A stretch of 64,000 nucleotides of DNA from an uncultured Gammaproteobacteria bacterium (lineage in GTDB: Bacteria > Patescibacteriota > Patescibacteriia > UBA9934): the NCBI GenBank assembly GCA_964452565.1, contig CAYVLY010000001.1:224351-288350 (forward strand), read 5' to 3'. The first letter of the stretch is position 1. Every line of letters starts with the position of its first letter. Below the pieces are notes generated by a model that had not been told where the DNA came from, made no database searches, and saw only the letters and a list, made by a program, of their open reading frames with translations. Both the position numbers and the translations under genes were made by a program. Of this stretch, positions 2,045 to 47,923 are shown one piece after another.

Positions 2045-2053
2045 ATCTAAACC

Positions 2054-2159
2054 CTCCCCCTTACCAAGGGGGAGATGGAGGGGGTTTTGCCAGCGATCTT
2101 GATTCGATCGAATTCGATCAAACGGCAACCACCCCTAACCCCTCCTTGGGAAGGAGGGG
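2054..2159. repeat. composite GC-rich palindromic element: two inverted copies of the hairpin+GGGGGTTGCC unit flanking a GATCGAATTCGATC palindrome
   Basis: CTCCCCCTTACCAAGGGGGAG-ATGGAGGGGGTTTTGCC ... GCAACCACCCCTAA-CCCCTCCTTGGGAAGGAGGGG. The same unit recurs at 4870, 10419, 23710, 30051 and 54770/54828. Confidence 0.7.
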
Positions 2160-2167
2160 AACCGAAC

Positions 2168-4845: not shown

Positions 4846-4869
4846 CTGATTCTATTATATCAGACTTGC

Positions 4870-4904
4870 GTCCCCCTTCCCAAGGGGGACAATAAGGGGT
4901 TGCC
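4870..4904. repeat. GC-rich palindromic element unit (GTCCCCCTTCCCAAGGGGGAC + AATAAGGGGTTGCC)
   Basis: Member of the dispersed family, intergenic between the M23 peptidase start and the 760-aa gene end. Confidence 0.7.
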
Positions 4905-4981
4905 ATTATCAGGTTGAACTATTTCTGAAAGCATGAATGCCGCCCTAGGCCATAGGCCCTGGACGGCGTGAGTTTCGCGTT

Positions 4982-7342: not shown

Positions 7343-8218
7343 TCAAGACTCTAATTCTGCTAGCCTCTTTTTTGCAGCAGCTAACTCTTCCTCTGCCTGC
7401 TTTAATTCCTTATCATTGAGCTCTATCTGGTCATCCAGTGCTGATATTAATTCCCCCAAGAAAGCCAGATACGCATCATCCCCCCTCAATTCAGCCTCTT
7501 GCTGCTCAAGCTCCTGTTCTGCCACCTCTGGTTCTTCCACTTCCTCAACTTCAGGCTCTTTGATCGATTCTTCGGCAACTGATGACTCTGGTTTTATAAG
7601 TCCAGCCTCCAAGGCCTCGGGTTGCAATAATCTCTTAAGCCTTTCTCTAGCATAGTACAAACGAGACATAACCGTACCTTCTGGAATATCCATTATCTCT
7701 GCAATTTCTTTATAGGCACGACCCTGGACTTCGCGCAATATAATAACTTGCCTTTGCTGTGGTGATAATTGACTCATTGCCCATTGAATCCTCTCTCCCA
7801 ACTCCTTTCCATGTACCTGATCGAAAGGCTGGTCAGGTCTTGTGTGTAAATCCCCTTCAATCTCAGTATCAATACGTTCATCAAACTCGGATGCTTGCCT
7901 TTTTTGCAGCCTACGAATCTCATCTATCGTTGCATTTATTGCGATTCTGTAAATCCAGGTTGAGAATGAAGCATCTTTTCGAAATCCACCAATATTTTTA
8001 TAAGCCTTTAGCATTACGTCCTGAGTAAGATCCTCTGCCTTTGCCCTATCTTTAATCATTCCAACAATATGAGCATAAATACGCCCACGATAAAGCTTTT
8101 GAAGCTCTTCCCAGGCCTTATGCTTCTCGTGTTCACTGCCTGATTCTTGAAGGATCGCAATTAGCTCCTTCTCTTGCGGATCCATCTCTCTTGGCTCTGT
8201 TTTTTCTCCCTTAGTCAT
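7343..8218 (-). CDS. ECF-type RNA polymerase sigma factor with about 100-aa acidic coiled-coil C-terminal extension
   Basis: Sigma-70 region 2 (DLTQDVMLKAY ... FSTWIYRIAINATIDEIR) and region 4 (YKEIAEIMDIPEGTVMSRLYYARERLK). Paralogous to the GC-rich sigma at 29314-29961. Confidence 0.8.
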   Translation of the reverse strand: MTKGEKTEPREMDPQEKELIAILQESGSEHEKHKAWEELQKLYRGRIYAHIVGMIKDRAKAEDLTQDVMLKAYKNIGGFRKDASFSTWIYRIAINATIDEIRRLQKRQASEFDERIDTEIEGDLHTRPDQPFDQVHGKELGERIQWAMSQLSPQQRQVIILREVQGRAYKEIAEIMDIPEGTVMSRLYYARERLKRLLQPEALEAGLIKPESSVAEESIKEPEVEEVEEPEVAEQELEQQEAELRGDDAYLAFLGELISALDDQIELNDKELKQAEEELAAAKKRLAELES

Positions 8219-9757: not shown

Positions 9758-10609
9758 TTAATTTATACTTAATAACTGCTTAATAATCTCAGGCACGGTT
9801 TGTCGAACTGCCCTAACAAATCGTTTTGATCGAATCGTTTCGACAATAACGTACGCTGGAAACACAATACTAGCTTTTAGAATCCTACCAATCCTGCGTG
9901 GTTCTATCAATACACGCCAAACCCATTCAAGGCCTGCTTTACGCATCCATTTTGGGGCCCTCTTGTGCCTTCCAGAAATCATATCAAGCGCTCCGCCAAT
10001 ACCGATCATTATCTTTACGCTTGGAAGCTCATCCTTAAACTTCTGCATGAAGAACAATTGCTTTTTATGACCAAGCGCGATAGCGATGATATCGGGTTTG
10101 ATTTTCGTGATTTGATCAATAATACCCCCATCAATCGAGATCTCACCATCCTCGATCTTAACTACGCCTGGATCAATGAAATCAATGTGAACTTTTGAGG
10201 GCAACTTATTAATTGCCTCCTTTGCCACTTTCTTATCACCTCCAAACAATAAAACCCTCTTCCCTTCTCTCCCACATAATTCGATCAGCCTCTGAAGCGT
10301 ATCAACTCCTGTATGGCGGTTGCTTAACTTTCGATCAGTTAGAGCTGAAGTTGCAAATCGAAGCGCAACGCCATCAGGAAGGTTTAGGTTGGATTCTTGA
10401 AGCGCTGATCGAAATACGCCTCCCCCTTTCCCAAGGGGGGATACGGGGGGGTTGCCTGCATTCTTATCTCGAATCGCGTCAACTAACATTTCAGGATTTG
10501 GTGTTGCTATACATTGGGTCTGACCCCCACGCAGAAAAGAAACAAGCCGAGCTTCAAGTTCAGCCTTAGTTAAATCATCAATTCGAATATCAAAAAGCTC
10601 ATGCCTCAT
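9758..10609 (-). CDS. WecG/TagA/CpsF-family glycosyltransferase (N-acetylmannosaminyltransferase-like)
   Basis: C-terminal family signature GGALDMISGRHKRAPKWMRKAGLEWVWRVLIEPRR. Carries an in-frame copy of the palindromic element (encoding PLGKGGGV). Confidence 0.75.
   Translation of the reverse strand: MRHELFDIRIDDLTKAELEARLVSFLRGGQTQCIATPNPEMLVDAIRDKNAGNPPVSPLGKGGGVFRSALQESNLNLPDGVALRFATSALTDRKLSNRHTGVDTLQRLIELCGREGKRVLLFGGDKKVAKEAINKLPSKVHIDFIDPGVVKIEDGEISIDGGIIDQITKIKPDIIAIALGHKKQLFFMQKFKDELPSVKIMIGIGGALDMISGRHKRAPKWMRKAGLEWVWRVLIEPRRIGRILKASIVFPAYVIVETIRSKRFVRAVRQTVPEIIKQLLSIN
10419..10456. repeat. GC-rich palindromic element unit inserted in-frame inside the WecG/TagA-like CDS
   Basis: CCTCCCCCTTTCCCAAGGGGGGATACGGGGGGGTTGCC. 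The ORF reads through it. Confidence 0.7.
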
Positions 10610-13880: not shown

Positions 13881-14436
13881 CTTGACACATTTTCACCCAA
13901 ATGCTTTAATATCTTCACGTCCATTTTGGCTAAGAGGAGTCCCAGCGAGTGCCGCGTCACCAGGAGGTACGCGCCGCGCGTCGGAAAGCTGCAATCCTGC
14001 AGTAGTCGACACTGGCCTTTGAAGCCAGCAGCAACCAAAGCTCAAGGGATCGAGATAGCGACCGAGCCTCTTCTCAGCCAGGCTGCGGGGTAAAAGCAAA
14101 CAAGCTGATACCACCACAAACCCGGAGAGTCCTGGTTCCCAGGACGCAGACTACGGAGGACGGTGAGTCCCAACATGCGCGGTCTGACCGGTTCCTCGTC
14201 ACGTTCACCCCCATGGGTCCCTGTTCGTGGAGAAGTCGTGTGCGGTGAGGAAATTCGCATCTTCACCACCCCGCAGCCATCCTTTTCTCGTAAATCCTTC
14301 GTGGCATCTTCCCTGCCATCGCCAGCCTCCTCGCCTGAGGTCGACGCCACGTGGGTACAGAGCCACCTTTGCCTCGCACTGGTGGCTCTCTACTTTTTGG
14401 CGCTAAACAGCTAGCGTCTATTTTTTATAAAAAGAT

Positions 14437-14457
14437 ACCAACGTTTAACGTTGGTAG
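14437..14457 (-). terminator. 21-bp perfect palindrome TACCAACGTTTAACGTTGGTA followed on the minus strand by a U-run; identical copy at 62118-62138
   Basis: Identical sequence plus similar flanks (ATAAAAA) at two loci, each downstream of a minus-strand gene. Confidence 0.5.
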
Positions 14458-14682
14458 TGCAGGTACCACATCTTATTGAAATCCGCAACTGTGGATAACA
14501 CGTCCAGAACCCGGTGCTGGACTTGATTTATAAAAGCGAAACTCCTTTATTTATAAGATATTCTTTCCAAGGTTGAACCTTGAGTATTAGAGCTAATAAA
14601 ATAAGGATAAGCGAAACCCCCGCAGCGCGTAGCGTGCAGGGGTCACGGAAGAAGGGTTGAAGAAGGGGCGCGGGGCGTGGGA

Positions 14683-15189
14683 CTAGTCGTTGTCGATGTC
14701 GAGCCCGTTGTTGCGGACCCAGAAGTTGTCAACGTCTTCGTCTTCCCACTGGATCACCAGGACATCGCCCTGGGGCACCTCGTCGGAGAACATGATCTGG
14801 GGCGGCCCGTTGTCGAAGGCTACCTCACCCATGCACTCAGCGTCGAAGTGGCTGGGAACGCCGTAGAACAGGATATCCGCGTAGACGCCGTCCGTGTAGA
14901 CATCGCCCACCTGGCTGAACTCAGTCTCCCCATCATCGAAGATGCAGGTGACTTCCATCGAGCTCACGGTATAGCCCTGGTCGGCGAACTTCGAGTCCCA
15001 CATGATCCACACGGCATCGTCGGTCGTGCCGTAGTAGCTGCCACCGTTGCCGAGGCCGACATCGATGTCGCAGTCCCAGACGCCGTCCGCATTGTAGCCA
15101 CATGAGGCACCGCCAAACTCGAAGCACCCGGGGGTAGCGACGGTGGACAGGGCGAGGACAGCGGCGAGCAGGGTGTTGATCTTGGTCAT
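14683..15189 (-). CDS. hypothetical secreted Cys-containing protein (signal peptide, possible lipobox ATPGC); GC-rich
   Basis: RBS GGAGGAG upstream, N-terminal hydrophobic signal, acidic mature domain. The overlapping plus-strand ORF is judged spurious. Confidence 0.5.
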   Translation of the reverse strand: MTKINTLLAAVLALSTVATPGCFEFGGASCGYNADGVWDCDIDVGLGNGGSYYGTTDDAVWIMWDSKFADQGYTVSSMEVTCIFDDGETEFSQVGDVYTDGVYADILFYGVPSHFDAECMGEVAFDNGPPQIMFSDEVPQGDVLVIQWEDEDVDNFWVRNNGLDIDND

Positions 15190-15270
15190 TTTCTCTCATC
15201 TCCTCCTCGCCGCAGCGAGGCTGTTGGGGTCACTGGTGCGTCATGGTCGAAAGGTTCGACTCACATACGC

Positions 15271-15340
15271 TCCTATAGCATAGGAAAAAGTGGAGTGAGA
15301 GATATTTAAGGTGCGCTCTTTCCTATGCTTTAGGAGTGCT
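15271..15340. promoter_or_regulatory. two related palindromic boxes (TCCTATAGCATAGGA and TCCTATGCTTTAGGAG) about 45 bp apart upstream of the secreted-protein gene
   Basis: Box 1 is a perfect palindrome (CCTAT-AGC-ATAGG). Box 2 is the inverted near-copy. Confidence 0.4.
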
Positions 15341-15430
15341 ATGAGCTACTCTCAGATTTCGATGCTTGATCGAAGTCTGGGTGTAGCCCACCCGACGAGA
15401 TGCCGGGATGGGCGAATGAGAAAGGTGAGG

Positions 15431-15697
15431 CTAGCGGCGCCACTTGCGGAAGAGCCGGGTGCGCTTGAGTGCCTCGCGGATTCCGAGCTCGCGGCTGTTC
15501 TCAAAGTTCCTGACGGCCATGACCTGACCTTGCCGGATCTTTTCGAGTCGGCCGAGCTCGTTGCGGATGGCCGCGTTCAGCTCGTCGAGCTGGCTGCGAA
15601 GCCCTCTTGAGAGCTGCATGGGGCTGCCGTGACCAGGCAGGCTCACCCTTGCAGTCGTAGTGTAGAGAGCGACGAGCGTTGTTTCGATGCCTTTCAT
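15431..15697 (-). CDS. hypothetical 88-aa protein (GC-rich island)
   Basis: GGAG RBS 6 nt upstream of the ATG. No recognisable motif. Confidence 0.3.
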   Translation of the reverse strand: MKGIETTLVALYTTTARVSLPGHGSPMQLSRGLRSQLDELNAAIRNELGRLEKIRQGQVMAVRNFENSRELGIREALKRTRLFRKWRR

Positions 15698-15842
15698 GTC
15701 ATCTCCAAACTACCCTTGAGGCAGCTGGTGTTAGGGAGCGTTGTGCTTCCCACCAAAGGTCTCGATACTATTCAAGCTCTTTGGTGGGCCCACTCGATCG
15801 AGGATCGAGTGGGACGAGGAAGGAGGGGGAAGGAAGAAGGTG

Positions 15843-16007
15843 CTACATCAGGGCCTTGACCGCGGCGTCGAGCACGTGGCTGTGCTTGGTGCTGCCGACG
15901 AGGGCGAGCCACGCGATGGGGGCGATCATCAGTCCAGCAACGGCCAGGCCGCTCTGGATGGTGTGAGCCTTCATGCGGACGTGGAAGAGGACGGTATCGA
16001 GGGTCAT
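15843..16007 (-). CDS. hypothetical 54-aa single-pass membrane peptide (not in the ORF track, below its 60-aa cutoff)
   Basis: AAGGAG RBS 7 nt upstream of the ATG at 16007. The ORF encodes MTLDTVLFHVRMKAHTIQSGLAVAGLMIAPIAWLALVGSTKHSHVLDAAVKALM. Confidence 0.3.
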   Translation of the reverse strand: MTLDTVLFHVRMKAHTIQSGLAVAGLMIAPIAWLALVGSTKHSHVLDAAVKALM

Positions 16008-16460
16008 GGTGTTCTCCTTGGAGGGTCGAGTGTTTCAATCTGGCTAGATTACTATCTATTCAGGTTGAAGCACTCGACTACCTATAAAGAAAACCGCCTG
16101 AGTTTCTCGAAAATTGAGAGAACCAGGCGGTTTCCTACCACTCAGTAGATCCTTCGACTCGGCCTTTGGCCTCGCTCAGGATGACGAGTGATTTGCTTCT
16201 TTACCCAGAAGCTTGGGCTCTCTCTAGTTGTAATGTTCTGATCAAATCTGCCTTGCGACTCCTTGATCTTTACATGTAGTACTATAGCACAAAATGACAA
16301 GTTTGTCAAGAGCTGAGGCTGGATTTTGGGCTAAAATTGGCATATATTCTATAGGTAGTAGTAAGTAGGTAGTAGGCAGTAGATGGGCAGCCAATACATA
16401 CCCGGACTTATCTACTTATTACTTCCTACTACCCACTACCTGCGCTATAATAAGGCCACT

Positions 16461-22371: not shown

Positions 22372-22420
22372 CCTCCTGTGTTTCAAACGAAAAAAACCAG
22401 CTTATAGCTGGTTTTTGGTT
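22372..22420 (+). terminator. tandem hairpins (GAAACACA...TGTGTTTC; AAAAAACCAGCTTATAGCTGGTTTTTGG) after the lipoprotein gene
   Basis: Perfect stem plus T-run. Confidence 0.6.
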
Positions 22421-24054
22421 TATTTCATGTTTGAAGTCGCAATTGGCACGGGCTGCTTTATGATTTTTTTCTTTTGAACTTCCTCAATGCCACTACGCCT
22501 CTTTTTTACAAACCCCTCCCAATCTATAAACGGCAAAACAAACAGCATCAAACTCAATCCAATCGGGTGATTTAAATATGGTGAGAACGTATGTGTCACA
22601 AATATCCCAACAATTCCAGCTACCATCCCCATTACAAGCCATTTATAGCCCCTGGATTGCGCTGTAAACCACCCAACACGCAAAAGTGACATAATATACC
22701 AAGCAAAGCCCGCGAGTCCCAGCAACCCCATTTTCAACCAAATATCATGCCAACCCCATTCAAATCTATAAGTAGTGTAAGCACCCCCATCTTCCTGCTC
22801 TAAAACTCGAGGATCTTCTGATTCATAAGTGACAGTTTCACCAAATCCTGAGCCTAGAATTGGGCTTGCGACTATCTCCTCCATCATTGGCTCAAGCAGA
22901 TTCCATCGACTAACAACCGCCTCAGAGCGACCAGTCTCTGACGATGTTTCAAAAAAGGCAGCATCGCTTAGATCTGGCCTTTCAGGAATGGGTATTTGAA
23001 CAATCATGATGATCACCAAAAATCCAACAATCGAAATGATTACACTGTTAAATGTCCTGGTTACAATCCAGACCTTTGCTCTGCCAAAAAACCAAGCGCT
23101 CACAAAAAGCATTAAACCACCAGCTATAATCCCCAAAATAAAACTTCTTGAAAGACTCAAGAACATTGTCATTATTGAAAATCCAAACACCAATCCAATA
23201 AACCACGGCATCTTACTCTTTCGCCACAAGTACATCATCGCTGAATAGGCTACAAGCACTCCAACCATTACCACTGTTTGTGCAGGCATGAAGATGCGAT
23301 ACCAATAATCACCTTCTATTGCAAGTCCGTACTTCAAAAGTGAGCTATTAAGTAAACTTGGCTCAGCACCAACAACCTGCAAAGTCACCTCAGCCAATCT
23401 TGAATCACGAACAAAAGTATAAAGGTTATGCAAATTGTCACCGTCAATGTGTGTGAATGCATAGGCTAATGCGATCGTAAAGCCAACAATCCATAAAACC
23501 GATGCGAAGAGCACTTGAAGGAGTTGCCTTTTCTGAGTCTGACCCCACTTGATCGTCAAGATTGGCAATAGGTATCCGATAACTACATAGCCATTAATAT
23601 CATCAAACGCGGCTAATAGATCATTTTGGATGAATCCAATGAATGTTCCGAGAGCTATAGCAGTGATCAATACAAGCCAGGGGACATCACGCATCCAGTT
23701 AAATCGAAAGGCAACCCCCTCTACCTCCCCCTTCGGAAGGGGGAGAACCTTATACAGCCACACGGCCATTACGATCACGAAAATCAGCATTCTGATCGAC
23801 AAGGAGAATCCAAACAACTCCACGTCAAGTAAATGGCCGTGGCCACCAACAAATATCTCAGCGAATGCTATCAACAATCCATTGATCGGCGACCGCCACG
23901 TTAATATCAAGGTGAAAACCCCAAATACGATGAACAAAGGCAATTCAAATCCAGTATCGCGCACAAAAAACGCTAAGGCATGCATAATACCGATCAAACT
24001 CAGTGTGATCCACATTGTATCTCCGATGAACTGCTTTTTGATATTCATAGTCAT
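22420..24054 (-). CDS. O-antigen ligase/polymerase-family (Wzy_C-like) polytopic membrane protein
   Basis: More than 10 predicted TM helices. Lies in the polysaccharide cluster and contains an in-frame palindromic element (encoding LPKGEVEG). Confidence 0.55.
   Translation of the reverse strand: MTMNIKKQFIGDTMWITLSLIGIMHALAFFVRDTGFELPLFIVFGVFTLILTWRSPINGLLIAFAEIFVGGHGHLLDVELFGFSLSIRMLIFVIVMAVWLYKVLPLPKGEVEGVAFRFNWMRDVPWLVLITAIALGTFIGFIQNDLLAAFDDINGYVVIGYLLPILTIKWGQTQKRQLLQVLFASVLWIVGFTIALAYAFTHIDGDNLHNLYTFVRDSRLAEVTLQVVGAEPSLLNSSLLKYGLAIEGDYWYRIFMPAQTVVMVGVLVAYSAMMYLWRKSKMPWFIGLVFGFSIMTMFLSLSRSFILGIIAGGLMLFVSAWFFGRAKVWIVTRTFNSVIISIVGFLVIIMIVQIPIPERPDLSDAAFFETSSETGRSEAVVSRWNLLEPMMEEIVASPILGSGFGETVTYESEDPRVLEQEDGGAYTTYRFEWGWHDIWLKMGLLGLAGFAWYIMSLLRVGWFTAQSRGYKWLVMGMVAGIVGIFVTHTFSPYLNHPIGLSLMLFVLPFIDWEGFVKKRRSGIEEVQKKKIIKQPVPIATSNMK
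23710..23745. repeat. GC-rich palindromic element unit (reverse orientation) in-frame within the O-antigen-ligase-like CDS
   Basis: GGCAACCCCCTCTACCTCCCCCTTCGGAAGGGGGAG. Confidence 0.7.
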
Positions 24055-28585: not shown

Positions 28586-29155
28586 CTACCTGACTTCGTC
28601 CTCACGCTCGATTACAACCTTGGCTCTCTTACGAGCTCGGAATATGCGGTTCATCACCGTACCCAGGGGAAGTCCAAGCATTTCTGCAATCTCACGACAT
28701 TTGAGTTCATCATAAGAATACATACATAGAACCTGCCAATATATCGGGTTGTGATGGCTCATTTCTCGCTTCACCTGATGTAGGAGCTGCTGACTACGAG
28801 TTGCCCTTTCCTGGTCTGGGCTCTCATCCTCGAGCTGCCCAACAGCTTCAGCGCTAGTGCATTTATCCCAACGCACATTACGTCGATAGATATCAATGGC
28901 AATCCTTTGAGCAATAGTGCGAGCCCAGGGGCCGAACGGGCGTCTGGGATCATAGCTGCCAATACCCATCAGTATCTTGAGACATGTGACCTGCGCTACA
29001 TCTTGTGCGGATGGTGGATCACCAAGAATCTTCATGGCAATCTTGAACGCAAACGGCCAGGTGATGGTCAATACACGCTCCATGGCCTCTTTATCACCAG
29101 CCTTCGCCCTTGCGGCCAACTCCCTACTGACGAGCATTCCATTCCCCACGCGCAC
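28586..29155 (-). CDS. ECF-type RNA polymerase sigma factor (GC-rich island)
   Basis: Region 2 (DVAQVTCLKIL ... FGPWARTIAQRIAIDIYRR) and region 4 (YDELKCREIAEMLGLPLGTVMNRIFRARKR). Confidence 0.8.
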   Translation of the reverse strand: MRVGNGMLVSRELAARAKAGDKEAMERVLTITWPFAFKIAMKILGDPPSAQDVAQVTCLKILMGIGSYDPRRPFGPWARTIAQRIAIDIYRRNVRWDKCTSAEAVGQLEDESPDQERATRSQQLLHQVKREMSHHNPIYWQVLCMYSYDELKCREIAEMLGLPLGTVMNRIFRARKRAKVVIEREDEVR

Positions 29156-29313: not shown

Positions 29314-29961
29314 CTACCTCAGATCCCTCAGGATCTGCTGCAGCCGCTTGCGGGCGTAGAAGAGCCGACTCATGACATCGCCCTCAGGGATATCCATGGC
29401 CTGGGCGATCTCCTTGTACGAGAACCCTTCGATCTCGCGCAGCAGGACCACTTGACGCTGCTGAGGACTGAGCTGCTGCAGGGCCTGTGCAATTCTGCGC
29501 ATGAGCTCAGCTCGTTGCTGATCTCGCCCCGGACTGCGGTGCAGATGATCAGGGTCCAGGAGTGAATCATCAACTCCGTCACTACCGATACGCTCATCGA
29601 ATTCGCTGGTCTTGACCCGGCTGTGCTTGCGGATGTAGTCGATAGTGACGTTCGAGGCGATCCGGTAAAGCCAGGTGTTGAATGAAGCCTCGAGCCTGAA
29701 TCCGCTGATGTTGCAATAGGCCTTTGCGAAGGTCTCCTGGACCAGATCACGAGCATCCTCGCGGTTGCGAATCATGCCATAGATGTGAGCGTAGATCCGA
29801 CCCTGGAAGCGATCAACCAGAACACGAAATAGCTCTAGCTCACCGCCTTGAATCCGCTCGACCAGCTGTCTGTCACCCAGTTCATCATATTGCTGCATCA
29901 GCTGCCTGCGCAGGCCTGCACACTCTCCTAGCACCTCGTCAGTGGATTCTTCGTCTTTCAT
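29314..29961 (-). CDS. ECF-type RNA polymerase sigma factor, GC-rich paralog of the sigma at 7343-8218
   Basis: Aligns along its length with the 7343 sigma (GRIYAHIxGMI ... SFxTWxYRIA ... SEFDERI ... LSPQQRQVxxLREIxG ... YKEIAxxMDIPEGxVMSRLxYARxRL). Start at ATG 29961 has a GAGGAGAG RBS. Confidence 0.8.
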   Translation of the reverse strand: MKDEESTDEVLGECAGLRRQLMQQYDELGDRQLVERIQGGELELFRVLVDRFQGRIYAHIYGMIRNREDARDLVQETFAKAYCNISGFRLEASFNTWLYRIASNVTIDYIRKHSRVKTSEFDERIGSDGVDDSLLDPDHLHRSPGRDQQRAELMRRIAQALQQLSPQQRQVVLLREIEGFSYKEIAQAMDIPEGDVMSRLFYARKRLQQILRDLR

Positions 29962-30050
29962 GTGCTCTCCTCTCGAGCCTCGGGTTGTACAATGGGACAC
30001 CCCAGATTAGCACAGAAAGGTGGGATTGTCAATGATACGATCAGATCCGA

Positions 30051-30088
30051 GACAACCCCCTCTATCTCCCCCTTCGAAAGGGGGAGCC
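30051..30088. repeat. GC-rich palindromic element unit (reverse orientation) upstream of the sigma gene
   Basis: GACAACCCCCTCTATCTCCCCCTTCGAAAGGGGGAGCC. Confidence 0.7.
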
Positions 30089-30147: not shown

Positions 30148-30543
30148 TTATCGCTTTCTCCACTGCGTTGCTCGTCGAGCTCCACGAAGTCCGAATTTCT
30201 TTCGCTCTTTCTTTCGCGCATCACGAGTTAACATTCCATGCGCTTTAATTACAGGCTTGAAAGTCTCATCATACTTTACCAAAGCGCGGGCAATTCCGAG
30301 CTTTACAGCATCTGCCTGACCACTCTTCCCGCCTCCCACAACACGAACTGTCACATCCATGCTATCAAGCTTTCCAACTTCTTTAAGCGGTGAAGTAGCA
30401 ATTACTCGCTCCTGCTCAGTATTGAAGTGCTCTTTTATGTCCTTTTCGTTTATCGTAATCTTTCCAGATCCAGCTGGATACAAACGAACCTGTGCGATTG
30501 CTGTTTTTCGACGCCCAATTGTCTGATAGTACTTGTCACTCAT
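30148..30543 (-). CDS. rpsI: 30S ribosomal protein S9
   Basis: C-terminal RDARKKERKKFGLRGARRATQWRKR. Confidence 0.95.
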   Translation of the reverse strand: MSDKYYQTIGRRKTAIAQVRLYPAGSGKITINEKDIKEHFNTEQERVIATSPLKEVGKLDSMDVTVRVVGGGKSGQADAVKLGIARALVKYDETFKPVIKAHGMLTRDARKKERKKFGLRGARRATQWRKR

Positions 30544-45861: not shown

Positions 45862-45890
45862 TTGACGCGATCTTTTTTCCGTGTTACAAA
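45862..45890 (+). promoter_or_regulatory. sigma-70-like promoter TTGACG-N17-TACAAA for the tandem small-protein family
   Basis: Same architecture as the promoter at 57541-57569. Confidence 0.45.
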
Positions 45891-45924
45891 GATTGCCACA
45901 CTTCAGTGGAACGGAGAAATCTCA

Positions 45925-46257
45925 ATGCTCTCTGACAATCTCATGCTCGCGCGTATGCAGCGACACGGACTCGCTGGCAGAATCCCACACGAAACCAAAG
46001 GCACAATCCAAGCGCTCGTCGCGCTTCGTCGTCCCCCTGGCCTACACCGTCTGCGCACTACTGCAAGACGTACGATCAAACTCTTCACCCTGGGTCGCAT
46101 GGGCCACAGGGACGACGGGCGCTACGGCCGAGTCTACGCTGCCAAGCGCAACTGCATTCGAGCCAAGATCCCGTCCGGGGTCATCGAGGGCGTCTTCCCA
46201 GAGGGCCCGAGCTGCTCAGAGATCGCCTGGCAGGAGATCTTCGTAGGCCTTTGGTAG
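45925..46257 (+). CDS. hypothetical small protein, family member A (motifs ALVALRRPP ... VFPEGPS)
   Basis: GGAGAAATCTCA-ATG RBS. Shares motifs with the two downstream paralogs. Confidence 0.45.
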   Translation: MLSDNLMLARMQRHGLAGRIPHETKGTIQALVALRRPPGLHRLRTTARRTIKLFTLGRMGHRDDGRYGRVYAAKRNCIRAKIPSGVIEGVFPEGPSCSEIAWQEIFVGLW

Positions 46258-46309
46258 AGGTCACAGAACACCTTCAAGCCTTCAACCGGCAACCCGGGAA
46301 AGGAGAACG

Positions 46310-46759
46310 ATGGACTACAGAAAACACCATATGCAAGATCGGCACCACGTAGTGCCACCAAGCCAGATGCTGCGGCGTGCACATCGTCTGCTCGCGCATA
46401 GCGATGAACAAAACGCCGTACTCGTAGCAGACAGAAACCTACGCGCCCTGGTCAAGATGAGACGTCCGCGCAAAGGACACTGGCTGAGCGACAGAGTCAC
46501 GATCCTGTGCGAAGGCCTCGGCCTGGAGGATCCTGACGAAACGCGGGGGGAGGAGATCGGGGCGCTCAAGCTCGCCTGCCAAGAAGCTGGTATGGCACCC
46601 TGGGCCATCAACCACGTCTTCCCGGAATGTCCGATGGATGTCGATGAGCCGATAGAAGAGCCCGACGCCAGGCGCATCGGCCCAATCGAGCGCCTCCGCC
46701 TCGCCAAGCTGCGTTTCTGGATGGCAGTCGACAATAGCTTCGGCCCCACCACCTCATGA
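46310..46759 (+). CDS. hypothetical small protein, family member B (ALVKMRRPR ... VFPECP)
   Basis: AAAGGAGAACG-ATG RBS. Followed by the hairpin ACGACCACCCTTCTCGGGTGGTCGC. Confidence 0.45.
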   Translation: MDYRKHHMQDRHHVVPPSQMLRRAHRLLAHSDEQNAVLVADRNLRALVKMRRPRKGHWLSDRVTILCEGLGLEDPDETRGEEIGALKLACQEAGMAPWAINHVFPECPMDVDEPIEEPDARRIGPIERLRLAKLRFWMAVDNSFGPTTS

Positions 46760-46776
46760 TCGCACCACGTTTCCTC

Positions 46777-46801
46777 ACGACCACCCTTCTCGGGTGGTCG
46801 C
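46777..46801 (+). terminator. hairpin ACGACCACCCTTCTCGGGTGGTCGC; identical 25-nt copy at 47391-47415
   Basis: Exact duplicate after members B and C of the tandem family. Confidence 0.55.
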
Positions 46802-46879
46802 CATACTTCAAGGTTGACTGGGCCCGACTTTCGTGCTATAACTTTCAACCACCCTAGTAGATCAATCAAGGAGGCCCTC

Positions 46880-47359
46880 TTGGTCACCCTCTACAAATTC
46901 ATGCCCCAGGTGGAATTCGCAACCCCAATGCACCAGCGCATCTATGACTGCTGGAACGATGGGCGCATTCCACAGACACAGCAGGCAGCGAAGGCCATAG
47001 GCGCACTCTACAGGTTGCGCCGAACCACGCGCCTGCGCTGTGTACGCGACTGGATCACAGAATGGATCGATACCGCCTTCGAGCAGAGCCCCAACGAAGC
47101 GCTGATGGCCCGACGCAACGCAGTCAGAGATGCCAAGGCAGCATGTGCCAAGGCCGGTATCCCGCTCGAGGTCATCGACTGCATCTTCCCAGAAGGCCCA
47201 AGCGCCCTGAATGCGAAGAGCTACGGAAGGCAGGTGGACATCGAGCCTGAGCAGCAGACTAGGCAGGCTGCCGAAGAACCGCGCCGCAGTATCTTCCAGC
47301 GATTCCACCTCTGGCGCGAACGCCAGCGCCACGCTACGCACATGGATGGCACCCGCTGA
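46880..47359 (+). CDS. hypothetical small protein, family member C (ALYRLRRTT ... IFPEGPS)
   Basis: AGGAGG 5 nt upstream of the TTG at 46880. Shares motifs with A and B. Confidence 0.4.
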   Translation: MVTLYKFMPQVEFATPMHQRIYDCWNDGRIPQTQQAAKAIGALYRLRRTTRLRCVRDWITEWIDTAFEQSPNEALMARRNAVRDAKAACAKAGIPLEVIDCIFPEGPSALNAKSYGRQVDIEPEQQTRQAAEEPRRSIFQRFHLWRERQRHATHMDGTR

Positions 47360-47527
47360 CCTTGTCCTGACCCTCGAGTCAAGGACAGCTACGACCACCC
47401 TTCTCGGGTGGTCGCTTGCTTTCTAACCAATGGTTTACAGTCTATAATAAATGTGATAGCTTCTAAGGCCCCTTCAACCCCCAACGAGCCCAATCGTAGA
47501 TCCGTCGATGGGCTTGGAGAACATAAA

Positions 47528-47923
47528 ATGAGCATGTTCGAAGAATGCCTCAAAAACACCTACTTCAACGTATCAGCGCTGATCGTAACCTTCTTCGTAA
47601 CCCGTATCATCCCCGCAAGCGACCCCTCTGGCTTCATGAGCAGCTCCATGAACACAAAGGGAATGTACTTGATTATGTACATTGGGGTCATCATCATGGT
47701 CGCAGCCGCATTCAACAAGGAAAAATCGAGACTCACATACGCATGCGCTGGAGTGGGTCTAGGACTCTGCTTCCCAATTGTGGGTAACATGCTATTCAGT
47801 GGCATGTTCATCGCCTTGCTGGCCAACGCAGCCATCGTGGTCATCATGATCGTGGCAGCAAACATCGTGGAATACAAGATGGACGAGATAGCCTACATCG
47901 AGCGTCCAGACGACTTCTACTAG
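47528..47923 (+). CDS. hypothetical small membrane protein
   Basis: ATG at 47528 (MSMFEECL), 3-4 TM helices, terminator GCGCCCCGCACTTGGGGCGC + T-run after the stop. Confidence 0.45.
   Translation: MSMFEECLKNTYFNVSALIVTFFVTRIIPASDPSGFMSSSMNTKGMYLIMYIGVIIMVAAAFNKEKSRLTYACAGVGLGLCFPIVGNMLFSGMFIALLANAAIVVIMIVAANIVEYKMDEIAYIERPDDFY

Follow-up and report, generated by a model that had tools for sequence, protein, structure and literature searches.

We describe a short dispersed repeat in a 64,000-nucleotide stretch of contig CAYVLY010000001.1 (the window, meaning this whole stretch) from an uncultured, Uhrbacteria-like member of the Patescibacteria. Based on its architecture the repeat belongs with the intrastrand-triplex repeats BoxC, PIT and TMECO, which have been known since the 1990s. 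Single units are read in frame by two genes of the window, and in many phyla a DUF559 nuclease (Vsr-like, PD-(D/E)XK) of ~115-125 aa is encoded by compact cassettes whose ends are units that face inward. The explanation that we favor, with a probability of about 0.7, is that the units are a dispersed triplex-type family whose in-frame insertion recurs and which ends DUF559 cassettes, and that the copies in the window are non-autonomous relatives of these cassettes, spread by the nuclease.

The first coding copy lies in a glycosyltransferase gene of the WecG/TagA/CpsF family. A preliminary description, made from the sequence alone, had placed a palindromic element at 10419-10456 of the window; it is present as GCCTCCCCCTTTCCCAAGGGGGGATACGGGGGGGTTGCC and begins one base earlier (10418-10456). 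As that description proposed, the minus-strand open reading frame (ORF) 9758-10609 runs uninterrupted through the unit in a stop-free frame, so the gene is not split, and the unit is translated as (NA)GNPPVSPLGKGGG. When 25 homologs were aligned, the insert proved to be the 15 residues NAGNPPVSPLGKGGG (residues 50-64 of the window protein; 12-17 had been estimated) between conserved blocks, and it is absent in 23 of the 25. Among those without it are syntenic orthologs, in which the gene order ClpB-DUF2238-WecG-GltX-sigma is as in the window. Columns that are invariant across the 25 homologs, including T36, D79, R98 and Q184, are retained in the window protein.

The structural position of the insert agrees with the surface loop that had been expected. 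The solved TagA structure 7MPK has a 15-residue alignment gap exactly at this position. In the AlphaFold2 model of the window protein (mean pLDDT 91.8, pTM 0.89) the single low-confidence block comprises residues 51-60, between helices 39-50 and 65-72. The insert is thus modelled as a disordered loop, rich in Pro, Gly and Ser, that joins two helices and precedes the catalytic Asp in an enzyme that is otherwise predicted to be intact. Read-through of the unit is tolerated because the insert length is divisible by three and the unit has almost no stops in any frame (five or six of the six frames are open in each unit).

The extra peptide could instead be an ancestral or independently evolved loop with a coincidental likeness to the repeat, or the ORF could be a pseudogene or an assembly artefact. 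An insert at the same WecG site of the ortholog P0008 would suit an ancestral loop, but in its DNA (L001 590-1453) the unit termini are the same and the loop is longer by ~42 bases, and the insert DNA of the window is itself recognisable as a copy of the family. The absence of the peptide from most homologs and from TagA also speaks against an old loop, and the full-length ORF with all family-invariant columns kept speaks against a pseudogene. An assembly artefact is ruled out because two independent assemblies (NCBI and Logan, one of them on a 709,517-bp contig) encode exactly the same protein. We find these explanations hardly credible.

Repeat finding and manual orientation identified eight copies of the unit in the window, two within ORFs and six intergenic, and four of the latter make up two inverted doublets (Table 1). 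The hairpin core was found at five sites with three or fewer mismatches, versus 0.04 expected from shuffled sequences. The element is a dispersed palindromic repeat, as had been described, but its architecture goes beyond a palindrome to include a third, mirror-symmetric purine block. In oriented copies a 9-nt pyrimidine arm, S1 (for example CTCCCCCTT), is followed by a loop of 3-4 nt and by the complementary purine arm S2 (AAGGGGGAG); after a spacer of 3 nt (4 nt in the decayed WecG copy) comes a second purine block, S3 (GAGGGGGTT), which is the mirror image of S2. Units in this lineage end in TTGCC, with a GCC tail after S3, and measure 37-39 nt in total. There are two sub-types, A (CTCCCCCTT/AAGGGGGAG/GAGGGGGTT) and B (CCCCTCCTT/AAGGAGGGG/GGGG[A/T]GGTT). 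Every doublet in the window consists of one A and one B, arranged tail-to-tail (2052-2160) or head-to-head (54768-54856), and A+B doublets also occur in a related genome (L002) and in other phyla.

The mirror relation was evaluated with 225 unique pyrimidine-arm hairpins from loci that were not chosen by the unit pattern. The rule was G opposite G and A or T opposite A, and S3 blocks swapped among the hairpins served as control. All nine positions follow the rule in 77 of the 225 hairpins, against 15 expected by swapping; for eight of nine positions the count is 22, against 26 expected. The mirror rule also holds for each of at least seven sequence types in which the A positions are shifted. 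An alternative hairpin between S1 and S3 was considered in place of a mirror block and rejected, as only 6-7 of 9 positions can form Watson-Crick pairs and pairing fails at the discriminating positions. Judged by sequence, the window units have the architecture of class II purine-motif intrastrand triplex repeats (BoxC/PIT/TMECO) with a different core.

Folding was analyzed with a model of Watson-Crick pairs only, so that the z values, relative to shuffled sequence, cover the hairpin part of the unit. Intact copies form perfect 9-bp hairpins, with z = -2.84 for the solo unit 30050-30086 and z = -1.78 for the unit at 23709-23745. The doublets are much better folded than shuffled sequence (z = -3.97 for 2052-2160 and z = -3.57 for 54768-54856). 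The WecG copy folds no better than shuffled sequence (z = 0.15 and -0.45).

In Escherichia coli the triplex motif has 9-nt blocks, loops of 3-6 and 3 nt and a total length of 37 nt (Holder et al. 2015, PMC4666352). The 23 TMECO copies of E. coli K-12 fall into types A and B and include five inverted pairs, each made of one A and one B, and formation of the triplex in vitro was shown by circular dichroism (CD) and nuclear magnetic resonance (NMR). They are always intergenic, and no transposon, phage or plasmid is associated with them, nor are there transposase or integrase remnants nearby (PMC4666352). Earlier work on triplex-motif repeats by Hoyne and Maher (2000, 2002) is cited in PMC4666352. 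The window family shares with BoxC/PIT/TMECO the series of 9-nt pyrimidine, complementary purine and mirror purine blocks suited to G.G-C, A.A-T and T.A-T triads, the loops of 3-6 and 3 nt, the length of ~37 nt and a G/C-rich composition. Also shared are near-identical dispersed copies with loops more variable than stems, two sub-types paired A+B in inverted orientation, presence/absence variation between relatives, and abundance in Cyanobacteria and Proteobacteria.

There are also differences. The TMECO consensus CCCTCNCCC-N3-6-GGGNGAGGG-N3-GGGNGAGGG does not describe the window units, whose cores are CTCCCCCTT or CCCCTCCTT rather than CCCTCNCCC. The window family occurs in Patescibacteria and many other phyla. 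Two of its eight window copies, together with copies in WecG and PriA genes of L002, lie inside intact ORFs, whereas TMECO is intergenic only, and a DUF559 gene is nested between units in the present family, whereas no mobility gene had been found near TMECO (PMC4666352). We conclude that the window family is, by its architecture, a new sequence variant among intrastrand triplex repeats. No Rfam family was found in the window at gathering thresholds, and at E <= 10 only noise appeared around a doublet. Literature searches with the sequence strings of the unit matched unrelated primers only, and the literature found on Patescibacteria palindromes, on small dispersed repeats and on REP/RAYT with Vsr-like enzymes does not describe the element.

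The second coding copy is in an O-antigen-ligase-like gene, which the preliminary description had also named (with the unit at 23710-23745). The unit occupies 23709-23745 and is translated as LPLPKGEVEGVA by ORF 22420-24054, so that the proposed in-frame tolerance of the repeat is borne out in both genes. The true start of the gene may lie two codons downstream, the database protein P0121 being 542 aa. The window protein has no Pfam match at E <= 0.001; PF04932 (Wzy_C/O-antigen ligase) is found in its orthologs, the nearest named of which are from Candidatus Uhrbacteria. Orthologs at 64-74% identity have LPLPKGE[I/R/L]EG at the same site, further orthologs have degenerate or longer versions of the peptide, and more distant homologs are 8-10 residues shorter. 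The preliminary description had counted a peptide shared with orthologs from genomes lacking the element as a sign against insertion. The ligase orthologs do carry the peptide, yet their DNA holds an intact element, which indicates an older insertion and does not refute it.

At the DNA level, the three unit blocks are identical in four ligase orthologs, synonymous positions included, whereas the loop and the spacer codon vary, the spacer non-synonymously (GTA, ATA, CGA, TTA). In a fifth ortholog (L129) this site is occupied by a unit of the B type. Among codons that are amino-acid-invariant in the four orthologs, 9 of 11 within the unit are nucleotide-identical, compared with 41 of 254 in the rest of the gene (Fisher p = 6.5e-6). 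Because identical codons are enriched inside the unit, it is held or renewed at the nucleotide level and not for the peptide. The ligase insertion is, from this comparison, an older one that is shared or repeatedly renewed. Much longer inserts are present at the already occupied site in the ligase orthologs P0128 and P0129. Together with the insert in WecG of L001, they suggest nested or expanding insertions at occupied sites.

In-frame insertion is not confined to these two genes. In the relative L002 a complete A+B doublet lies in frame at another WecG site. PriA of the same genome has three in-frame inserts, missing from three orthologs including that of the window. An intact unit (…SPLLKGELEGV…) makes up one of them, and another is similar to a unit read in the other orientation (…NPKATPSTSPLGSG…). 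Going by these alignments, in-frame insertion is evidently recurrent in this Uhrbacteria-like lineage. Intergenic unit positions are mostly not common to the window and L002, consistent with gain and loss of units. In-frame coding insertions appear to be an unreported behavior of triplex-type units.

The preliminary description regarded in-frame tolerance as a hallmark of Rickettsia palindromic elements (RPE), which were reportedly described by Ogata et al. in 2000. These elements are ~100-150 bp long, confined to Rickettsia and without a third mirror block, and no nuclease gene is known to be associated with them. The likeness is real with regard to behavior, as in both cases a selfish-looking palindromic repeat lies in frame in intact ORFs and is tolerated as a surface peptide, but this is not evidence of membership. 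With a unit of 37-39 nt, a host among the Uhrbacteria-like Patescibacteria and the same unit in many phyla, the window family is set apart from RPE by their description, and the two would not be expected to be related in sequence. The RPE-type label therefore holds as an analogy only, and the window family is neither RPE nor TMECO itself.

The distribution of the unit was scanned in species-representative genomes using an exact pattern with 24 specified bases. At least 119 stretches match, against ~0.004 expected by chance (our own arithmetic). The matches listed include Patescibacteria, Cyanobacteria, Planctomycetota, Poribacteria, Gammaproteobacteria, Cloacimonadota, Ignavibacteria and others, and several genomes among them have many matches each. 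The head-to-head B+A doublet recurs across these phyla. Only six viral contigs hold the exact unit, so phages do not stand out as its main vector. In filamentous cyanobacteria (L007, L024, L029, L041, L052, L073, L080, L107, L112, L116) the unit is part of a longer conserved composite, with a second hairpin, AGCCCTCCCCTTGCAAAGGGGAGGGAAC, upstream and a conserved flank, …CTTGTGTGTACACCGTAGC…, downstream.

The association with a nuclease gene emerged from the 119 loci that were chosen by the unit alone. Among their 2,419 ORFs, the only recurrent non-housekeeping family is a protein of 113-123 aa, identified as DUF559 (PF04480; Pfam E = 6e-31 to 7e-34), and no transposase family recurs. A (+) unit lies directly upstream of the start codon in all five DUF559 ORFs of this set. 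An inverted (-) unit follows the stop codon in four of the five (not in L050), which places the ORF in the spacer of a tail-to-tail doublet, and three of these four ORFs lie between direct repeats of a whole head-to-head doublet.

The reverse analysis used 80 metagenomic loci fetched by DUF559 peptide patterns alone. Based on a strict structural detector, a unit is present <=160 nt from the ORF in 45 of the 80 loci, with 34 upstream (mostly +) and 31 downstream (mostly -). Based on a tolerant detector, units are present <=200 nt from the ORF in 66 of the 80. Unit density is 4.21 per kb near the DUF559 ORF and 0.11 per kb farther off in the same loci, and some units overlap the DUF559 stop codon. 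The same unit-DUF559-unit arrangement is found in Uhrbacteria (P0316/L210), in another member of the Patescibacteria (L212) and in Magasanikbacteria (L095). The proteins encoded between units are single-domain and 113-128 aa long; their ORFs are continuous, with no intron or intein noted, although none was specifically searched for.

Units also lie beside a DUF559 gene in E. coli K-12, where a decayed unit spans the stop codon of ycjD, a DUF559 gene (L219, NC_000913.3, 1351040-1351830). Downstream there is a duplicated fragment of the gene's own 3' end and then another decayed unit, and a perfect type-A TMECO lies ~170 nt downstream of the gene. With 23 copies per 4.64 Mb, we estimate the chance of this proximity as ~0.002 (own arithmetic). 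The sapF-fabI locus, in which ycjD lies, contains the eefRABCD efflux operon in other phylogroups of E. coli (PMC12817139). Compared with solved chains, the DUF559 profile matches 3HRL (E = 1.9e-27) and 3R3P (E = 8.6e-6). The latter is the catalytic domain of I-Bth0305I, the prototype Vsr-like EDxHD homing endonuclease (PMC3239194), and a survey of PD-(D/E)XK enzymes places Vsr, DUF559 and the matched structures in one group (PMC3424549). These results suggest that triplex-type repeats travel with a small nuclease gene. The nesting of a DUF559 gene between triplex-type units appears to be unreported; in the literature retrieved on DUF559, ycjD and later intrastrand triplexes, no title or abstract ties the repeats to this gene.

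The units might instead resemble repetitive extragenic palindromic (REP) sequences or miniature inverted-repeat transposable elements, moved by a conventional transposase encoded elsewhere (RAYT-type Y1 or an insertion sequence), with DUF559 as a passenger or preferred landing site. The doublets do resemble REPINs, no nuclease gene was found in the window, and RAYT genes display exactly the pattern of a single gene flanked by inverted repeats (PMC3116915, PMC3337134). The family also shares with REP/REPIN-RAYT systems short G/C-rich hairpins, inverted doublets and high copy number. However, the gene that recurs among the unit-selected loci is DUF559, a PD-(D/E)XK Vsr-like protein and not a Y1/HUH tyrosine transposase, and the geometry of the units around it is tight, with some overlapping its stop codon. 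A search for a transposase in the unannotated islands of the window gave no Pfam matches, and, as noted above, transposase or integrase remnants are lacking near TMECO sites (PMC4666352). The conserved GTAG or CGTC head of the REP superfamilies (PMC3733652) is absent from the units, which have a conserved tail, GTTGCC, instead. Unlike REP sequences, the units include a third, triplex-type block and also occur inside genes. In REPIN-RAYT systems the doublet is the apparent functional unit; the window family has both doublets and single units. REPIN-RAYT systems are described as mostly vertically inherited (PMC3116915, PMC3337134), whereas the window unit sequence is common to many phyla. We consider mobilization by such a transposase improbable.

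A second point of comparison is the Vsr-like EDxHD homing endonucleases, represented by I-Bth0305I (PMC3239194). The DUF559 ORFs, which are in genomes other than that of the window, have the same Vsr-like catalytic fold, and like homing endonuclease genes they sit inside a sequence that also exists 'empty'. They differ in being single-domain, without a NUMOD/HTH DNA-binding region, and in lying between repeat units, with no intron or intein noted around them.

The main rival explanation is that the units are structural or regulatory DNA that benefits the host and is kept by selection, with roles in translation initiation, transcription, replication pausing or supercoiling. In that case the coding copies would be retained for a useful DNA structure or loop, and DUF559 would merely be regulated by the units. 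The ligase unit, with blocks conserved at synonymous sites and a variable loop and spacer in four orthologs, could be read in this way, as could the Shine-Dalgarno-like sequences that unit arms provide at two start codons of the window, 8 nt ahead of each. In ORF-bearing copies S3 is often 3-27 nt upstream of the DUF559 start codon and may be a dedicated ribosome-binding site there. Against host benefit, the distribution of these distances is broad and not fixed, copies occur in all kinds of context at positions mostly unshared between relatives, one coding site can hold a unit of another type in another genome, and the presence of the same DNA unit across phyla looks like horizontal spread. 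When tested for function, the E. coli elements showed no promoter or terminator activity, and their positions hint at no general regulatory role (PMC4666352). Taken together, we judge host benefit to be an unlikely account of the family.

Under the explanation that we favor, the ORF-bearing DUF559 cassette would be the autonomous form, and the ORF-less doublets and solo units of the window would be its non-autonomous relatives. The nuclease would cut at units, either folded or as duplex, and repair from other copies would then spread, renew and homogenise them. This cut-and-repair model would explain the nucleotide-level conservation in coding DNA, where conserved blocks have free loops, as well as the replacement of A by B at one site and the expansion of inserts where a unit is already present. 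A broader version, which we advance tentatively and at somewhat less than even odds, is that BoxC/PIT/TMECO are the ends and miniature derivatives of a selfish element of ~0.45-0.5 kb, whose single-domain DUF559 nuclease recognises the folded or duplex unit and drives copying, homogenisation and cross-phylum spread. In reduced Patescibacteria this would lead to in-frame colonisation of essential genes, and YcjD would be the cognate enzyme of TMECO.

Several observations weigh against the role given to the nuclease. No DUF559 gene was found in the window or in the fetched loci of relatives (best E = 0.18), and the best 120 DUF559 homologs include none recognisable from the genome that encodes the identical WecG protein (P0001). 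Solitary TMECO copies of E. coli are without ycjD remnants, and each genome has a single ycjD locus. The 80 loci of the reverse analysis share the DUF559 subfamily of the query, so that the result applies to that subfamily and not to all DUF559 proteins, and the association of units with DUF559 does not tell cause from effect. Neither a target-site duplication nor a defined insertion boundary was established; GCC...GCC bounds the WecG copy and not the other copies. With a fold z of about 0, the decayed copy in WecG may now be inert.

Table 1 Repeat units of the window and the two genes that carry a unit in frame
Feature	Position	Strand	Details
A-type unit, left half of tail-to-tail doublet	2052..2091	+	8 nt past alanine racemase stop codon
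B-type unit, right half of tail-to-tail doublet	2123..2160	-	CCCCTCCTT/AAGGAGGGG/GGGGTGGTT
Solo unit, third block decayed	4868..4905	+	between two co-directional minus-strand genes
WecG/TagA/CpsF-family glycosyltransferase gene	9758..10609	-	intact, 283 aa; Pfam Glyco_tran_WecG PF03808, E = 3.4e-42
Unit in WecG/TagA-like gene	10418..10456	+	S1 CCTCCCCCTT, loop TCCC, S2 AAGGGGGG, spacer ATAC, S3 GGGGGGGTT, tail GCC; partly decayed
O-antigen ligase/Wzy_C-like membrane protein gene	22420..24054	-	hosts second in-frame unit
Intact A-type unit in O-antigen-ligase-like gene	23709..23745	-	CTCCCCCTT-CCG-AAGGGGGAG-GTA-GAGGGGGTT-GCC
Solo intact A-type unit	30050..30086	-	between ORF 30148-30543 and ECF-type sigma factor gene
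B-type unit, left half of head-to-head doublet	54768..54804	-	upstream of beta-CASP RNase gene
A-type unit, right half of head-to-head doublet	54819..54856	+	divergent intergenic region ahead of Dus gene

The intergenic copies differ in their surroundings. The genes on either side of the solo unit 4868-4905 encode a 786-aa protein of unknown function and an M23 peptidase. On the plus strand, the arm AAGGAGGGG of the B unit at 2123-2160 stops 8 nt short of ATG 2168, a codon in frame with an FtsQ/DivIB-like ORF; the listed start of this ORF, 2075, falls within the doublet. From its position, this B unit provides the FtsQ/DivIB-like gene with a Shine-Dalgarno-like sequence that its own arm CCCCTCCTT might sequester. 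In the B unit at 54768-54804, the GGAGG within S3 (GGGGAGG) precedes the start codon GTG 54765 of the beta-CASP/RNase-J-like gene by 8 nt. A perfect 18-nt palindrome, TTGATCGAATTCGATCAA, lies in the spacer of the tail-to-tail doublet (2100-2122), and similar spacers are found in doublets of Uhrbacteria L070 and of L002 (10903-11013).

The window has some other features of note. Four tandem small ORFs (131-181 aa) at 45862-47923 are paralogous (repeat family D4) and form an island of 57% G+C with no Pfam match; two of them are followed by an identical hairpin, CGACCACCC-TTCTC-GGGTGGTCG (46778-46800 and 47392-47414). In the region 14000-16200, also 57% G+C, ORFs overlap on both strands, and neither Pfam nor Rfam gave a match. 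After a tRNA-Ser(TGA) gene (51666-51742) comes a direct repeat of 51 nt (51802-51852 and 52219-52269; 92% identical), which could be the edge of an integrated element. There are three ECF-type sigma-70 family genes in the 64 kb (7343-8218, 28586-29155 and 29314-30000), in a genome that looks very small.

In this streamlined, uncultured bacterium, loops derived from the repeat are present in two envelope genes that are apparently intact, so short mobile DNA can reshape proteins even when the genome is tiny. E. coli, other Enterobacteria and Cyanobacteria have triplex-type repeats in abundance, and these repeats have been linked to genome instability. The association with DUF559, including ycjD, provides a concrete candidate for the unexplained spread of these repeats, and one that is testable in a model organism. 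If true, it would constitute a new repeat-plus-nuclease system, parallel to REPIN-RAYT but with another enzyme fold and a non-B DNA structure.

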